Source: Candidatus Lloydbacteria bacterium RIFCSPHIGHO2_02_FULL_50_18
Lineage (GTDB): Bacteria > Patescibacteriota > Minisyncoccia > Phycocordibacterales > UBA6899
Assembly: GCA_001821395.1 (NCBI GenBank)
Contig: MHLM01000014.1
Location: 32,001-96,000 of the forward strand
DNA length: 64,000 nt
Direction of reading: 5' to 3'
Below, in pieces: positions 45,001-54,000 of the stretch (positions within the stretch are counted from its first letter, which is position 1; every line of letters starts with the position of its first letter). Made by a program: the position numbers.

Positions 45001-48000
45001 CAATTCCTTCAAGGCGGTAGGCGACGCGATCGCGTTTGAGATAAAACGGCACGCCGAGGTGCTCGGACGGGGGGAGAAGATCGTCCAGGAGACGCGCGGC
45101 TGGGATGAGAATGCGGGAAAGACGTTCAGTCAGCGCAAGAAAGAGAGTGCGAACGATTATCGATACTTTCCGGAGCCGGACCTTCCGAAGATGCGCATTT
45201 CGGAGATACCCGAATTTCAGAACCTTAATGAGACCATGCCCGAGCTCCCGTGGGAGCGCCGCCTGCGCCTATCGAAGGAATTTGGTTTTCAGGATGCTAT
45301 TACGGAAATGTTCGTCACTGATGACGCGATCGGTGGTTTCTTTTCGGATGTCGCGCTAAAGCTTTCGGGAGATAAGGACCTCATCAAATTGGCTTCGAAT
45401 TACATTACCTCAGATCTTGCCGCACTCATGAAGGCGAACAATGGAAGTATGGGGGCTGTCACGCCTGAGACGTTCACCGTACTCGTGCGCATGGTTGGTG
45501 CGGGTGATGTGTCGTCACGTGGTGCAAAAGATACGCTTGCGATCATGTATCGAGAGGGAGGTCTTGCGCGCAATGTGGCAGAGCAGCACGGACTTATCCA
45601 AAAAAGTGACATAGGTGCGCTCGAATCTATCGTCAAAGACGTCATCGCCGCAAATGCCGAAGCAGTTGCTGAATACAAAGGTGGCAAGACTGCATCACTC
45701 CAATATATCGTTGGACAAGGAATGAAAGCAAGCAAGGGCTCTGCAAATCCAAAGGTGCTGGGAGAATTGTTTCAAAAATTGATCGGCTAAGGCCTCGTCC
45801 ATTAATAAGTTGCTATAAAAAATGGATGATGCACAAAGGACCGTCACCACCAATAACTATGAAGTTATTGGTGGACGAGTCCTAAGCAGTGAGGGGCTGT
45901 TTGCCCCGGTTGTTATTTAACGGTTTTGTTGTATTCTAAAGAACATGGATGTCGGTAACAAAACCCTCTCTCAACTTTCCGATGAAGCGAAGGAGAAACG
46001 CTACGTCTCGCTGCCGACTGCGGCAAAAATATCCGGTTATACAACAGAATATTTGGAACGGCTTTGCCGTCTTGATAAGGTGGAGTGCCGTGTCTGGAAT
46101 CAGGGGGAATTTGTGATAGAACTCGCATCGTTATTGGCGGAAACTCATGCGATATTGCTTTCTTATGAAGATATTCATTTTGTTGAAAAAAGCCTTTTGG
46201 CGCCCGAAACTGTGTCACCAGGACTTGTTGCGCAACCGCTCGTTGCCGATCATTCGCAAGATCTGAATGCGGATAGAGAAACTGAGGCTGGGAGAATATT
46301 GCCGGAAAAACGTGGGGCGGGGATGACTCAGTCGGTACCGAGTTTTAGGGAGGCGAATCATGCCCCTCTTCGTGGAGAGAACGGCTCAACATTCTCCGTC
46401 ATCGGAAATATGGTCGTTTCAAACACGGCAGAGGAGGAAAAAAAGAAAGAGTCTGAGGCCGCGGCACTATTGAATAAAGTAGCGAAGAGAGAAGATCCGC
46501 GGAGTACTAGGGTGAGCACGCCGCAATCGGTTGATGTTCCTTCTCTGTCTGTGCACGCCATGACACATGTTCCCGTCAGTGGTGTATTAAAAAAGATCTT
46601 TGATAGTTCATTGGGAGATTCATCGGGTGCGCCCATTGTATCATCCCGAGATCAACAACCGAGCACGAGCAACGCCTCCTCTCCTCTCCCCGTTGTTCGT
46701 CTTGACGTTCGGCGCGAGCATGTGACCTCTGTCCCCATACAGGCAAAGAATGATGAATGGGATACGATGCTATTGGGTGGGCATATCGATGCCCCCGTAT
46801 CCGCTCCCGCGATGAGTGTTGAAACGCCGGTGCCGGCCGAAACGACAACACCACGATCCCCATATCATCCGATACAGACGTCAGTCGAAGCAAGCGTGCA
46901 TCATGAAGACCTTCCGCTTTTCCCGTTTCTTTCCGGTCTCCCGGCGGCATCGTCGGCTTCTCCCGTTATCGATGCTCCTCATTCAGCCATCCCCGATCTC
47001 GGGGACGATAAACGCGTGGTTGTTTTTTTACCGGGGAAATATCCCCACATGACGACCCCGCAAAAAGTAGTTGCTGTTTCTCCTGAGCGATCATCACCCC
47101 ATCCCATGTTCGTTGTGCCTCAAGCTCCTCGCTCACGCCCGTCCGTACTTCCTGCTCCCTCCGCGCCATTGTCGGTCGTTTCAAGCGCGCGGACCGTGCC
47201 GTCAATAAGAGTGATGGCGCATGACTTATCGAAAGTCGCAGTCACGCTTCCGATGACCGGAGAGGAGCATCACCTTATCCTTCGTGAGAAGTATCCGCTA
47301 TTAAAAAGCGTCGGCTTCAATGTCGCCTTTGCACTTTTTCTTATCGGCGCAGGAATGCTCTCGTTCGGCGGATGGATGGAAAATACTCCTGTCGTGTCTA
47401 ATTCTGTCTCATACGTGGCCGGTGTCGGCGCGGCAATGGGGCAGCTAACAGCTGTCCATACCGTGGAGGAGGTGACCACGGTCAGTTCCGACCCAAATAC
47501 CGTACTGCCTTTTTCGGACGAGATCACCGTTGCAACGGGAGCAGACGCTCATTCCATCGTCGTTCAACCGATCTTTAGGGATTCGGCGGGGAGTGCGTAC
47601 GAATATTCGATACCGCAATAGAAGCATCAAAAGGGGTCGGTTGGGGATAGCAAGTAACGCCGTTTCTTCATATAATGGAGCGATGAAGAAACACGCCATT
47701 TTTATTGGGCGATCGTTGGCTGTGGCGACGTCCTTTTTTGCGCTGCTCTTTCCGATGACGCTCGCGTACGCTCTGGATGCGCTACCCTCAGGAGCTTTTA
47801 TTGTGCGTCCTGCCAAGATCGAGCTCGCGATCAGTCCCGGTTCAGAGAAAACGACGATGCTCACACTCTCAAACGGAACCGCATTGCCACTCTCGGTCCG
47901 TGTCTCGTTTGAAGACGTTGCACCAAGTATGCAATCCTCTCCAGTCGATGCGTCCATCGTACTTCTTGGTGCGGACGGGGGATCGTACCCGCTCAAAGAA

Positions 48001-51000: not shown

Positions 51001-54000
51001 CCACCGACGGGAGGTGCTACGTCCACGCCAATATTTCCCCCGATCACGAGCACAACAAGCGGACCCTTCGTGAATTTTCCTGCGACGGGGACGCCCAGTG
51101 CAGAGATACTGGCGATCACTCTTGATGATTTTGTTTTCACCCAAGTGGGAGTCGGTACACCTGATGTCATCCTCGTACAAAAAAGGGGAGTCACGCGCAC
51201 GAATGGAGAAAAAAATGTGCGTGTTTCAATCTCCTACGATAAGCTCCCTGACGTTTTGAAAACGATCGCGATCACCGTTGCTGATCCCAATCAGAACAAT
51301 AAAGAGTCATCATACCTCTTGGGCGTGAATGCGACGAAGACGGCGTATGAAGGAGTTGTTCCGGTCTTTGTCGAAGACGGTAAGTATCCGTTTACCATCA
51401 ATATCGTCGATCATGAAAATAGGGGCATCGCGAGGATTAGTGGTGTTCTTGACGTGTATTTTCCATTGAAGCTGCCGACTATGATTCCACCTGCGATCGC
51501 GGAGGCGGTCAATCAGGCGATCGAGATCATTCAGGCACCGGTACAAAATATCTCTCCGTACGCCGTACCGGTTGGAGTAGCGGTCGGTACGGGGCAGGCG
51601 GTTCTGCTCGCAACAAACGTGGGATCTGTGTATGACGTGTATCTCCTCATTCTCAAATTCATCGGATTGCTCACCGGACTCTTTCGCCGAAAGCGCCATG
51701 AGCCGTGGGGTGTTGTCTACGACTCCGTGACCAAGCGGCCGCTTGATCCCGCTTATGTGATCGCGCAAGTTCGCGACACGGAAAATTCAACGGGTGAGGC
51801 GATCACCGACCTTGATGGTCGTTACGGATTTCTTCTGAACCCGGGAGAATACACCATTGTTGCCAATAAGACCCATTATAAATTCCCCTCAGACAAACTA
51901 AGGGGACGTGTTCGTGATGAGTTCTATGAGAATCTTTATTTTGGCGATCCATTTCAAGTGCGGGAGGGAGGTACGGTGACCTACAACATCCCTCTTGACC
52001 CTGTCGAATTCGACTGGAATGAGTATGCAAAAAATCAGGAAAAAGTCTTTCAAGTATATTCCAAAAATGCGAATATACGGATGTGGATATTCAACATCGT
52101 TTTCTATATTGGCTTGGCATTCTCTGTGTTGACTCTTTTCCTTTCCCCGTCGCTATTGGATGCCTTGGTCGTCGCGATATATCTTGGGATTATTGGCTTT
52201 CAGGTTTTCTGGGGTGTGACACATAAGGTCACTCGAGTGATAAACAAACTTACGGGAAATCCTATGCCATTTGCGCTCATTAAAGTTTGGCTTCCCGGAT
52301 TAGATACCGTAGTGAAAAAGACCGTTGCCGATGCATCCGGAAAGTTCTATTTCCTGATCTCGCCCGGAACTTACTACATCACCATTGAAGAAAAGCTTCC
52401 CGACGGTTCATATCATGAAGTGTTGCATACAAAGGACATGGCACTTCCAAAGGGGGTGGTAAAAGAAGATTTTTTGATCTAGGTGCCGGCATAAATAATC
52501 AACGCCCGACTTGTGTCGGGCGTTTTCTCATCAGTCGAGTTTTTGCGGCGAGGTGTCATCGAACGTTTCATCATTCGCGGCAGGAGTATCAGGAAAGCGA
52601 AATTTTCCGGGAATCATCGTGAGGTCAGAAATACCGATGAATTGGGGGGCTTTTCCTTCCGCCAGTACGGCGAAACGCATCGTGCCCATCCAGACTCCGC
52701 GAATATTGGTTTGAGCGAGGTGCATGCTTCACTCCTTATTTTTTGAGTTTTGCTAAACTAATTAAACTATGGCATAAAATAATGCAATTAGTCAAGTTTA
52801 TGTTTTTACAAGAAGAAACAAAAATGACCCCAATTGGGGTCAGATCGAAACAATTCCAAGATCGCATAATCCGTTAAAAACGAGATTGTTCCTTGCTATC
52901 CATTTGTCCCACGCCGCTTGCTCTCGTTTTGTACGAATCCACCAATACTGCTTTTTTTGGAATAGGCTATCAAGGTAGCGTATCTCTTTTTCTCCACCAG
53001 CGAGTTTAAGAAATTGCTTTTGCGCCCTGCATGCACCCCATTCCCGCCGAAAACGGGATAGCGGGGTTAGTGCATCGCCGTATTTGTGTCGCTGTGTGCA
53101 GTGTTGGGCTTCGTGGACAAAACACGACGCAAGCGATCGCAGCGTGTATGTTGTCGTAGGGCCAAAATCAATAAAGAATATTTTTGCATTACCTAGTGAG
53201 AGAAGCGCCCCGGCATTGTTTTTTGGTGCACTGCAGACAACCGTTAGCATGTTTGATCTGCGCACCATCTTGTCATATCCTATACGGCAAAGTAAATTGA
53301 TGGCCCGCTTAATCCGATGAAGGGCGGTTTCGTCCTGAACCATAAAACGGATCCCACAATGCTCTATGTAGAGAAACATTCTTCCTCCTGCTGTTACCAC
53401 CGAATGTCCCTCGACTGCGATGACTTTGTCCATGTTTCACCCTTCGATACTAGTTCTATTACTAATTTACTGTTATTCATATCAACGTCAAGCGTGTCCG
53501 CGACAAAATAGGAAAAGGGAAATATAATGGGAGGAATCATCTTACTATCAACTTAATTCACGCTTTTCATGTCAGATAAAAAAGTACGGATCGCGATCAA
53601 TGGCTTTGGACGTATCGGTCGCGCGTTTTATAAGCTCGCACGCACACGACCGGAATTTGAAATAGTCGCCGTGAACGATCTGGGCGATCCGGATAACATG
53701 TCCTATTTGCTCAAGTATGATACTGCGTACGGACAAGCGGACTTTAATATTACCGTGGTCGCACAGGAAGTCGGAGTGGAAGCAGGATTCATCGACAATG
53801 GACATAAGGTGATATTGGTTCAGGAAAAAGATGCAACAAAGCTTCCTTGGGCGGAATACGATATTGATATCGTCATTGAGTCAACGGGATTTTTTACGAA
53901 CTACGACAAGGCGCAGATACATCTCATTGCGGGGGCAAAGCGGGTCGTTATCACTGCGCCCGCAAAAGGGACACCAACTGATGGTGTGACGGCTGCGATG

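Follow-up and report, generated by a model that had tools for sequence, protein, structure and literature searches.

A candidate usher-less donor-strand system encoded by a conserved four-gene operon of Paceibacteria

Results

A conserved four-gene operon

We analysed a stretch of 64,000 nucleotides (nt) from Candidatus Lloydbacteria bacterium RIFCSPHIGHO2_02_FULL_50_18 (assembly GCA_001821395.1, contig MHLM01000014.1, positions 32,001 to 96,000 of the forward strand), referred to here as the window and numbered from its first letter. The host is an ultrasmall bacterium from groundwater that belongs to the candidate phyla radiation (CPR), in the Parcubacteria/Paceibacteria group. Our subject is an operon of four plus-strand open reading frames (ORFs) at 45945-52482, g1 to g4, which we read as a candidate system for building a surface appendage by donor-strand exchange. 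The operon has been annotated solely as hypothetical proteins, and its products are identical to the 'hypothetical proteins' A2845_03585, A2845_03590 and A2845_03595 of a Candidatus Lloydbacteria metagenome-assembled genome. ORF calling placed g1 at 45945-47621 (558 amino acids (aa)), g2 at 47683-48654 (323 aa, ATG start, MKKHAIF), g3 at 48651-49418 (255 aa) and g4 at 49429-52482 (1017 aa, GTG start); all features of these genes given below lie on the plus strand. The four ORFs are real, and their spacing of 61 nt, an ATGA overlap and 10 nt agrees with an earlier note made from the sequence alone, although the last two values depend on the choice of start codon. GenBank starts g3 at the ATG at 48657 (253 aa), whose methionine is more than 90% conserved; with this start the ATGA overlap disappears and a 2-nt gap takes its place. 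An in-frame ATG at 49450 in g4 would similarly widen the last gap to 31 nt. The GTG-start version of g4 is absent from the public protein collection, and the mechanical ORF of g2 reaches back to a TTG at 47530.

The operon is closed by a terminator-like hairpin (52501..52528) that lies 19 nt past the g4 stop and consists of a perfect 10-base-pair stem (AACGCCCGAC/GTCGGGCGTT, 52501-52524) followed by TTTT. A small G+C hairpin on the same strand (GGGGC-TGTTT-GCCCC, 45893..45907), inside the 154-nt spacer between gatB and g1, probably marks where the upstream gatB unit ends, which would make g1 the first gene of the operon. A promoter scan was uninformative (10 sites compared with 8.8 expected in shuffled sequence), and tRNA and Rfam scans of the window gave no matches.

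With a degenerate-pattern scan over one genome per species, we found g3 relatives in 221 species-level genomes and retrieved 80 of these loci (L001-L080), each from a different species-level genome; they span Lloyd-, Zambryski-, Taylor-, Nomura-, Vogel- and Kaiserbacteria as well as other Paceibacterota. The g2 and g3 genes were same-strand neighbours in all 80 loci, and a g4-like gene followed downstream in 75. Genes like g1 that had both conserved ends, an N-terminal helix-turn-helix (HTH) and a C-terminal motif, accounted for 50 ORFs over the 80 loci. Judged from these sequences, the four-gene arrangement is not a product of chance. The counts bear out the proposal of the earlier note that this is a cell-surface operon of four co-conserved genes, and they run against the lack of co-conservation that it had named as grounds for giving the proposal up.

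The flanks are housekeeping genes, with obg, a YiiX-like papain gene and gatB upstream and gapdh, rpiB and rpe downstream. Among the 80 loci, obg-gatB was found upstream in about 40-47 and gapdh-rpiB-rpe downstream in about 15, and the flanks of the window (42013-45790 and 53569-56226) are in this conserved position. Such a stable chromosomal position over many Paceibacteria lineages is unusual for a surface-protein locus.

A membrane-tethered chaperone-like protein

The AlphaFold2 model of g2 (predicted local distance difference test (pLDDT) score 90.9) comprises a signal peptide, two beta-sandwiches (residues 36-176, 47788-48210; residues 184-291, 48232-48555) and a C-terminal transmembrane (TM) helix (residues 294-321, 48562-48645). 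The Pfam family WxLIP_PGBD (DUF916) reached g2 of the window only below threshold (E 0.0019, 18.6 bits against a cut-off of 27.3), and 28 of 63 g2 relatives matched it. A profile of the g2 family searched against the PDB retrieved WxLIP1 of E. faecium (EfmWxLIP1; E 0.005). The top Foldseek match of the model in the PDB was the solved E. faecium WxLIP (9i1y/9i25; E about 1e-10), with the chaperones CfaA, CsuC, FimC, Caf1M, SafB and EcpB interleaved just below it; RbmA was also among the matches. WxLIP and the chaperones matched with E-values of 1e-10 to 1e-7 over about 260-280 aligned columns. We also built alignments of WxLIP and WxL proteins from annotated Enterococcus, Listeria and Lactococcus plasmid loci (L081-L087), and comparison of the g2 family with the WxLIP alignment by hhalign gave a probability of 96.8% (E 2.8e-10) over 216 columns that cover both domains. 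We conclude that g2 is a remote homologue of WxLIP (DUF916+DUF3324) with a PapD/FimC-like two-domain fold. The layout like that of DUF916/CscA that had tentatively been assigned to g2 thus holds at the level of remote homology.

A pilin-like subunit and its family

After its signal peptide, g3 has a linker or extension of three S-x-SY repeats (residues 28-84, 48732-48902; SSSTSYRIQTDSVNVGG, STSTSYRAEDTIGEEGVG and SSSASYNIKAGYQQMQ), and then a pilin-like beta-sandwich (residues 86-255, 48906-49415) with an invariant pair of cysteines, C189 and C200. The AlphaFold2 model shows a confident beta-sandwich at residues 84-255, whereas residues 27-83 have pLDDT values below 50. Conservation within the protein nevertheless peaks in this 57-residue repeat region, where the top residue has a mean frequency of 0.78, compared with 0.71 in the domain. 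The top Foldseek matches of g3 were the donor-strand fibre subunits FimA, PapE, CfaB and CsuA/B, at E 8e-3 or weaker. The predicted fold is therefore placed nearest to chaperone-usher pilins by a ranking that is consistent, with scores that are modest and short of proof. No Pfam family matched g3, and a profile search of the PDB came back empty.

Among NCBIfam models, g3 matched NF058579, 'CPR-type pilus protein PamT' (E 1.6e-12), with 47.3 bits against a cut-off of 240 and an alignment limited to residues 11-134 and to positions 6-128 of the 241 in the model. All 65 g3 relatives matched NF058579 as well (best E 1.9e-16). As far as sequence comparison goes, g3 is homologous to the N-terminal half of PamT and is not a PamT equivalog. 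The Pam pilus belongs to Candidatus Mycosynbacter amalyticus, a CPR member of the Saccharimonadia, and was described by Troman et al. (bioRxiv 10.64898/2026.03.03.709456). Its PamA/PamB filaments were resolved by cryogenic electron microscopy (cryo-EM) and are held together by donor-strand exchange through a linker strand. PamA, PamB and PamE are two-domain pilins with a nine-strand N-terminal domain (NTD), a linker donor strand and a truncated immunoglobulin (Ig)-like C-terminal domain, and the authors report that the donated linker is the most conserved part of the subunits. From AlphaFold models they infer that PamC and PamD are TM-anchored PapD-like chaperones and that PamR is an FnIII tether with an N-terminal strand and a C-terminal TM segment; PamT is a single-domain protein of about 25.6 kDa and low abundance, proposed as the tip subunit. 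By comparison, g3 lacks the NTD of the two-domain pilins. It is the sole ORF with a pilin domain in the 64-kb window, which holds no further copy of either the repeat module or the pilin domain.

We searched with a g3 profile over 1.84 billion representatives (clusters at 50% identity) and obtained 1,826 relatives at E ≤1e-3, with 257 at E ≤1e-30. Small proteins like g3 made up 102 of the top 150. Another 15 were in-frame fusions of a g2-like chaperone, including its TM helix, with a signal peptide and the g3 module, which provides a Rosetta-stone link between g2 and g3. In these fusions, of which P0226 (549 aa) and P0229 (577 aa) are examples, the internal signal peptide retains an AXA-like cleavage site. 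The other top relatives were larger: in 26 the repeats and pilin domain came after an N-terminal payload, and in seven an inserted domain separated the repeats from the pilin domain. Of these large proteins, nine were scanned (six of the payload type and three of the insert type), and six bear Laminin_G_3 (a ConA-like lectin domain), DUF2341 and/or fn3. The order of payload, repeats and pilin domain suggests that the repeat region is a linker from a head to a strand-accepting domain, as in PamA/PamB. In the g3 family, as among WxL proteins and FimH-type adhesins, 'small' forms thus occur beside 'large' ones.

In 42 of the 80 loci, all of them distant (L022 onward; for example L038:8276-8968, L043:8285-8995 and L076:8159-8872), the g2 orthologue is directly preceded by a second pilin gene, which is absent from the window and from Lloydbacteria-type loci. 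This paralogue has about 215-260 aa, and its domain aligns with that of g3 at an hhalign E-value of 5.5e-47. Its extension is short, for example DQFTISQTVTA, and begins right after the signal-peptide cleavage site; relative to the domain, repeat 3 of g3 occupies exactly the position of this extension. No NCBIfam Pam model matched the paralogous pilins, nor did any match the g2-like and g4-like proteins of the distant loci.

The WxL question

The earlier note had taken g3 for a possible WxL-like protein. Its description of a secreted protein of 255 aa was accurate (a signal peptide is present, as are the motifs SSWTV, with W117, and CWAPLL, with the invariant W201), but the WxL assignment failed. 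Among 65 g3 relatives and 34 paralogues there was no match to PF13731 (WxL), and hhalign comparisons with the WxL alignment gave 4% and 1.6%, confined to the last strand (GSYTATATLTV aligned with GTYQSTLTWTL). Neither conserved Trp of g3 belongs to a W-x-L motif, W117 standing in WTV and W201 in WAP. According to one proposal, WxLIP binds WxL proteins at the cell surface and stabilises them there, and crystal entry 9i25 contains WxLIP bound to a long WxL partner; no 9i25 chain was among the top 50 fold matches of g3. The Pfam scans of 99 family members, the profile-profile comparison, the motif and the fold ranking together rule out g3 as a WxL protein. We also found no conserved LPXTG partner, the sole LPxTG-like string being LPMTG in g1 of the window. 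A WxL/Csc cluster would have at least two proteins with a WxL domain (PF13731) and two W-x-L motifs. Because it has neither WxL proteins nor an LPXTG partner, the operon is not a WxL cluster.

Two observations on the WxL proteins themselves touch on this comparison. In the small WxL proteins of L081-L087, a proline-rich linker connects the domain with a short N-terminal strand, and the last strand of WxL (Y..T.TW.L) resembles that of g3 and the paralogous pilins (Y.AT.TLTV). The latter likeness is suggestive of a very distant relationship between WxL and g3, to which the profile comparison lends no statistical support.

A candidate tether with a donor-strand-like N terminus

Behind its signal peptide, g4 has a mature N terminus that resembles a donor strand (GNQFTIGVTVTSD; residues 49-61, 49573-49611). 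This is followed by an FN3 domain (residues 64-150, 49618-49878; Pfam, and PDB match 1k85), a Big_5 domain (residues 162-273, 49912-50247; Pfam) further Ig-like and proline-rich segments, and a first TM segment (residues 724-742, 51598-51654). The remainder contains a Pfam CarbopepD_reg domain (a CarbopepD_reg_2 match; residues 761-818, 51709-51882), a pair of TM segments (883-901 and 909-927, together residues 883-927, 52075-52209) and a second CarboxypepD_reg-like domain (residues about 940-1017). Pfam and TM prediction on the window protein thus directly confirmed the FN3, CarboxypepD_reg and internal TM segments described before. In architecture, g4 has what a PamR-like tether would have, namely an N-terminal strand, fn3/Big_5 domains and TM segments, although it matched no NCBIfam PamR model.

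The N-terminal motif is kept directly behind the signal peptide in g4 orthologues (YDNFTVSQTVTG in L038), and it is the same motif that the extension of the paralogous pilin carries. Across 35 genomes, the g4 peptide was more similar to the paralogue extension of its own genome (mean BLOSUM62 score 25.9) than to those of other genomes (15.9), and none of 10,000 permutations reached a likeness as high. Such likeness within a genome is expected if both peptides fit the same groove. It also matches the PamR model, in which the strand of the tether plugs the last subunit. The length of g4 varies, from about 1000 aa here to about 450-560 aa in most distant loci. One possible explanation, that a longer g4 offsets the loss of the paralogue, was rejected because several loci without a paralogue have a short g4 (about 530 aa).

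A transmembrane helix-turn-helix protein

The first gene, g1, encodes a cytoplasmic HTH_17-like N terminus (residues 11-84, 45975-46196), a linker rich in S, P, T and A (residues 86-455) that varies across orthologues, a single TM segment (residues 456-474, 47310-47366) with basic residues on its N-terminal side, and an external C-terminal motif, FSDEITV..VVQPIFRD..YEYSIP (residues 502-557, 47448-47615). The HTH_17-like N terminus and the S/P-rich, TM-containing body had both been noticed before. The body was found as described, whereas the HTH_17 assignment stands for the family, with matches to PF12728 in 14 of 27 orthologues (best E 9e-15), and the window copy itself has no match. One orthologue matches the excisionase model TIGR01764. 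The family consensus of the C-terminal motif is SFSDEV.V.PD..G..GVI.PVFR...G..Y.YVLVP, with F523, S524 and P542 invariant, and a profile search of g1 against the PDB returned only noise. The string LPMTG (residues 435-439, 47247-47261), which sits 16 residues ahead of the TM segment, was considered as a sortase signal and rejected: it is not C-terminal, with 84 more residues following, and is absent from all 26 orthologues, so we regard it as a chance match. Our guesses for g1 are a ToxR-like transmembrane regulator or a base component.

Other features of the window

Between the operon and gapdh, the sole minus-strand gene is an ORF of 197 aa (52840-53433) that has a HEAQH motif of the HExxH type and no Pfam or NCBIfam family. 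A set of glycan or polysaccharide genes at 2341-24061 includes asparagine-synthase-like and carbamoyltransferase genes, a Polysacc_synt flippase (12823-14088, minus strand) and a Wzy_C O-antigen-ligase-like protein fused to TPR repeats (21806-24061). Another candidate surface protein, of 761 aa, is encoded at 59036-61321 and has an N-terminal hydrophobic segment and bacterial TSP3 (calcium-binding) repeats.

Discussion

A proposed usher-less donor-strand system

CPR bacteria are regarded as monoderm. We favour, at a probability of roughly 60%, the interpretation that the operon is an usher-less, chaperone-assisted donor-strand system that builds a membrane-anchored surface appendage in such a cell. 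The product would most likely be a surface fibre or stalk made by strand-swapping between subunits, and the operon is most likely a simpler, undescribed relative of the Pam pilus and of WxL clusters. We observed secretion and membrane signals, monomer folds, remote homologies, synteny, gene fusions and motif sharing, and the following course of assembly would accommodate them. By their signal peptides and TM segments, all four proteins are substrates of the Sec pathway or membrane proteins. Tethered to the outer face of the membrane, g2 would cap the incomplete Ig-like fold of freshly exported g3 with a strand of its own, as PapD/FimC, PamC/PamD and WxLIP would do; its fold, its homology and the fusions point in this direction. 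This strand would then be swapped for the donor strand of a partner, either the repeat region of the next g3, giving a polymer, or the extreme mature N terminus of g4. Embedded in the membrane and presumably unable to accept a strand, g4 would end and anchor the structure, and like PamR it would add a stalk, here of about 650 aa of FN3/Ig domains. The last step is the weakest: with HTH_17 inside the cell and a conserved beta-rich motif outside, g1 might let transcription respond to the state of assembly or contact, or it might serve as a base component.

A likely function of the appendage is adhesion to a host or partner in an episymbiotic lifestyle, given that g3 relatives carry lectin-type (Laminin_G_3, DUF2341) or FN3 payloads ahead of the same module. 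The earlier suggestion of a non-covalently assembled surface complex was right in spirit, but donor-strand complementation is better supported than a WxL/peptidoglycan platform.

Comparison with known systems

The operon has much in common with the Pam pilus. Both are found in CPR hosts and have no usher, and by architecture g2 can be likened to PamC/PamD (a PapD-like protein with a C-terminal TM helix) and g4 to PamR (an N-terminal strand, FnIII domains and a C-terminal TM segment). Like PamT, whose N-terminal half it shares, g3 is a small single-domain subunit; the linker or donor region is the most conserved part of the subunit in both systems, and paired cysteines occur in both. However, the window has no two-domain pilins of the PamA/PamB/PamE kind, g3 scores 47 bits where the PamT cut-off is 240, and neither g2 nor g4 matches a Pam model. 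The Lloydbacteria operon also has an additional conserved HTH_17-TM gene, a g4 with Big_5 and a tail of several TM segments and CarboxypepD_reg, and neighbours (obg-gatB and gapdh-rpiB-rpe) that differ from the ATP synthase genes next to pam. Paceibacteria are not named in the text or supplement of the preprint, and whereas Pam filaments have been seen by cryo-EM, the Lloydbacteria operon is known from genes alone. Many distant loci have, after the g4-like gene, a gene for a giant secreted protein of 1,200-2,800 aa (for example L038:12286-16425, L042:12296-20758, L045:13221-20714 and L063:12596-20203, with about 12 more loci); none is present in the window. These giants share the mature N terminus AAFNxxINYQGKLT..VAVADG.Y and may correspond to the 'tail fibre-like' protein that adjoins pam operons in the preprint.

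Classical and archaic chaperone-usher pili (Fim, Pap, CFA/I, Csu and CupE) resemble the operon in the two-domain fold of the chaperone, in a pilin-like subunit with a conserved N-terminal extension and a cysteine pair, in the logic of a terminator or anchor, and in having two-domain adhesins that join a lectin to a pilin. Our ORF, Pfam and NCBIfam scans found no usher-like protein among the four genes or their flanks, and for want of an usher the operon is not a chaperone-usher system. It also differs in that its host has no outer membrane, its chaperone is membrane-anchored, its anchor is an integral membrane protein, and the g3 extension is a 57-residue triple repeat that can be an internal linker.

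With the WxL/Csc clusters of Lactobacillales and Listeria (Siezen 2006; Hassan & Williamson 2022, 2023; 9i1y, 9i25), the operon shares the size and layout of g2, which are those of WxLIP, and the clustering of a chaperone-like gene with a small secreted partner. The partner families agree in having 'small' forms and 'large' payload forms with the module at the C terminus, and in attaching an N-terminal strand to the domain through an irregular linker. Against this, g3 has no WxL domain or W-x-L pair and a fold nearest to chaperone-usher pilins, the host is a CPR bacterium rather than a Firmicute, and the operon has an additional tether with a donor-like N terminus. The operon also has no LPXTG protein or sortase, although the small LPXTG protein CscD is frequent and not obligatory in Csc clusters. 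Chaperone-free fibres (TasA/TapA, TasA-like archaeal fibres and Pyrodictium cannulae) differ from the operon in having no PapD/WxLIP-like chaperone and no FN3 membrane tether. Our literature search found the Pam preprint alone to connect CPR with chaperone-usher-like assembly, nothing that connects DUF916 with Patescibacteria, and no paper that argues for a link between WxL and chaperone-usher systems, the only two co-mentions being general reviews as judged by titles and term counts.

Competing interpretations

Several points weigh against a donor-strand system. The structure predictions are of monomers, so strand insertion is itself inferred. The match of g3 to PamT is weak (47 bits against 240) and covers the N-terminal half only, and g2, g4 and the paralogues match no NCBIfam Pam model. 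A permanent stoichiometric complex would account for the in-frame g2-g3 fusions no less well than a transient chaperone, the likeness of donor peptides within a genome could be partly due to gene conversion or shared composition, and the role of g1 is speculation. Moreover, with one pilin-fold gene in the window, the system may make no filament at all but a 1:1 capped stalk. The sole exchange would then be insertion of the N-terminal strand of g4 into g3, placing one g3 at the tip of a single g4 stalk with its repeat region exposed as a ligand-binding element. This arrangement would suit the single pilin-fold ORF of the window and its closest relatives (L001-L021), the greater length of g4 here than in most distant loci, and the fact that PamT, the homologue of the N-terminal half of g3, is the proposed low-abundance tip subunit. 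However, stalk length does not track the loss of the paralogue, repeat 3 of g3 stands at the position of the paralogue's donor extension and is compatible with self-polymerisation, and the count of one pilin covers the window, while the rest of the genome may hold more. We regard a capped stalk as possible, although doubtful.

We think it unlikely that the operon provides a static display of the WxL/Csc type, in which g2 would be a permanent anchor that holds g3 by non-covalent strand insertion and g4 would be a separate adhesin; elsewhere g2 would likewise hold lectin-bearing proteins that have the g3 module. That g2 is nearest to WxLIP in both sequence and structure, and that WxLIP is a proposed binder and stabiliser of WxL crystallised with one such protein (9i25), speak for such a display, as do the parallel between small and large g3-family forms and small and large WxL proteins and the fusions, which suit a 1:1 complex. 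Yet g3 has no detectable WxL domain, there is no LPXTG partner, and the fold of g3 is closest to polymerising pilins. A static display would also leave unexplained why g4 and the paralogous pilin have a co-varying N-terminal strand in common and why conservation in g3 is highest ahead of the domain. It overlaps with donor-strand assembly if WxL clusters also use strand complementation. Finally, the four genes could be functionally unrelated neighbours, with a regulator, an Ig-like protein, a small secreted protein and a large adhesin adjacent by chance; every protein has generic beta-sandwich domains, and their relation is drawn from evidence other than direct interaction data. This is highly improbable, since order and strand are kept in 75-80 of the 80 loci across many Paceibacteria lineages, g2 and g3 have fused independently, and the genes are tightly spaced and share a single common terminator.

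Implications

The CPR, or Patescibacteria, make up a large share of bacterial diversity. To our knowledge, all cultivated members live attached to hosts, and we know of few attachment mechanisms beyond type IV pili and the Pam pilus (as of 2026). The homology of g2 to WxLIP suggests that the WxL clusters of Gram-positive bacteria work by the same chaperone-like insertion of a strand. A bolder and quite tentative proposal is that the operon is a minimal usher-less donor-strand system found throughout Paceibacteria that links the Pam pilus of CPR, the WxL/Csc clusters of Firmicutes and the chaperone-usher pili of Gram-negative bacteria through an ancestral chaperone-subunit pair. This pair may have consisted of a membrane-tethered WxLIP/PapD-like chaperone and a strand-accepting subunit. 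On the same proposal the repeats and pilin domain would form a portable 'plug' for mounting lectin adhesins on the cell, and g1 would signal assembly or host contact across the membrane straight to DNA, which it may do through its conserved external beta-motif. If the donor-strand interpretation is true, assembly of the Pam type would extend to Paceibacteria with a simpler design of subunit, a single domain with an N-terminal or linker repeat, and the repeat module and the donor peptide of g4 would become sequence handles for finding adhesins of CPR bacteria.

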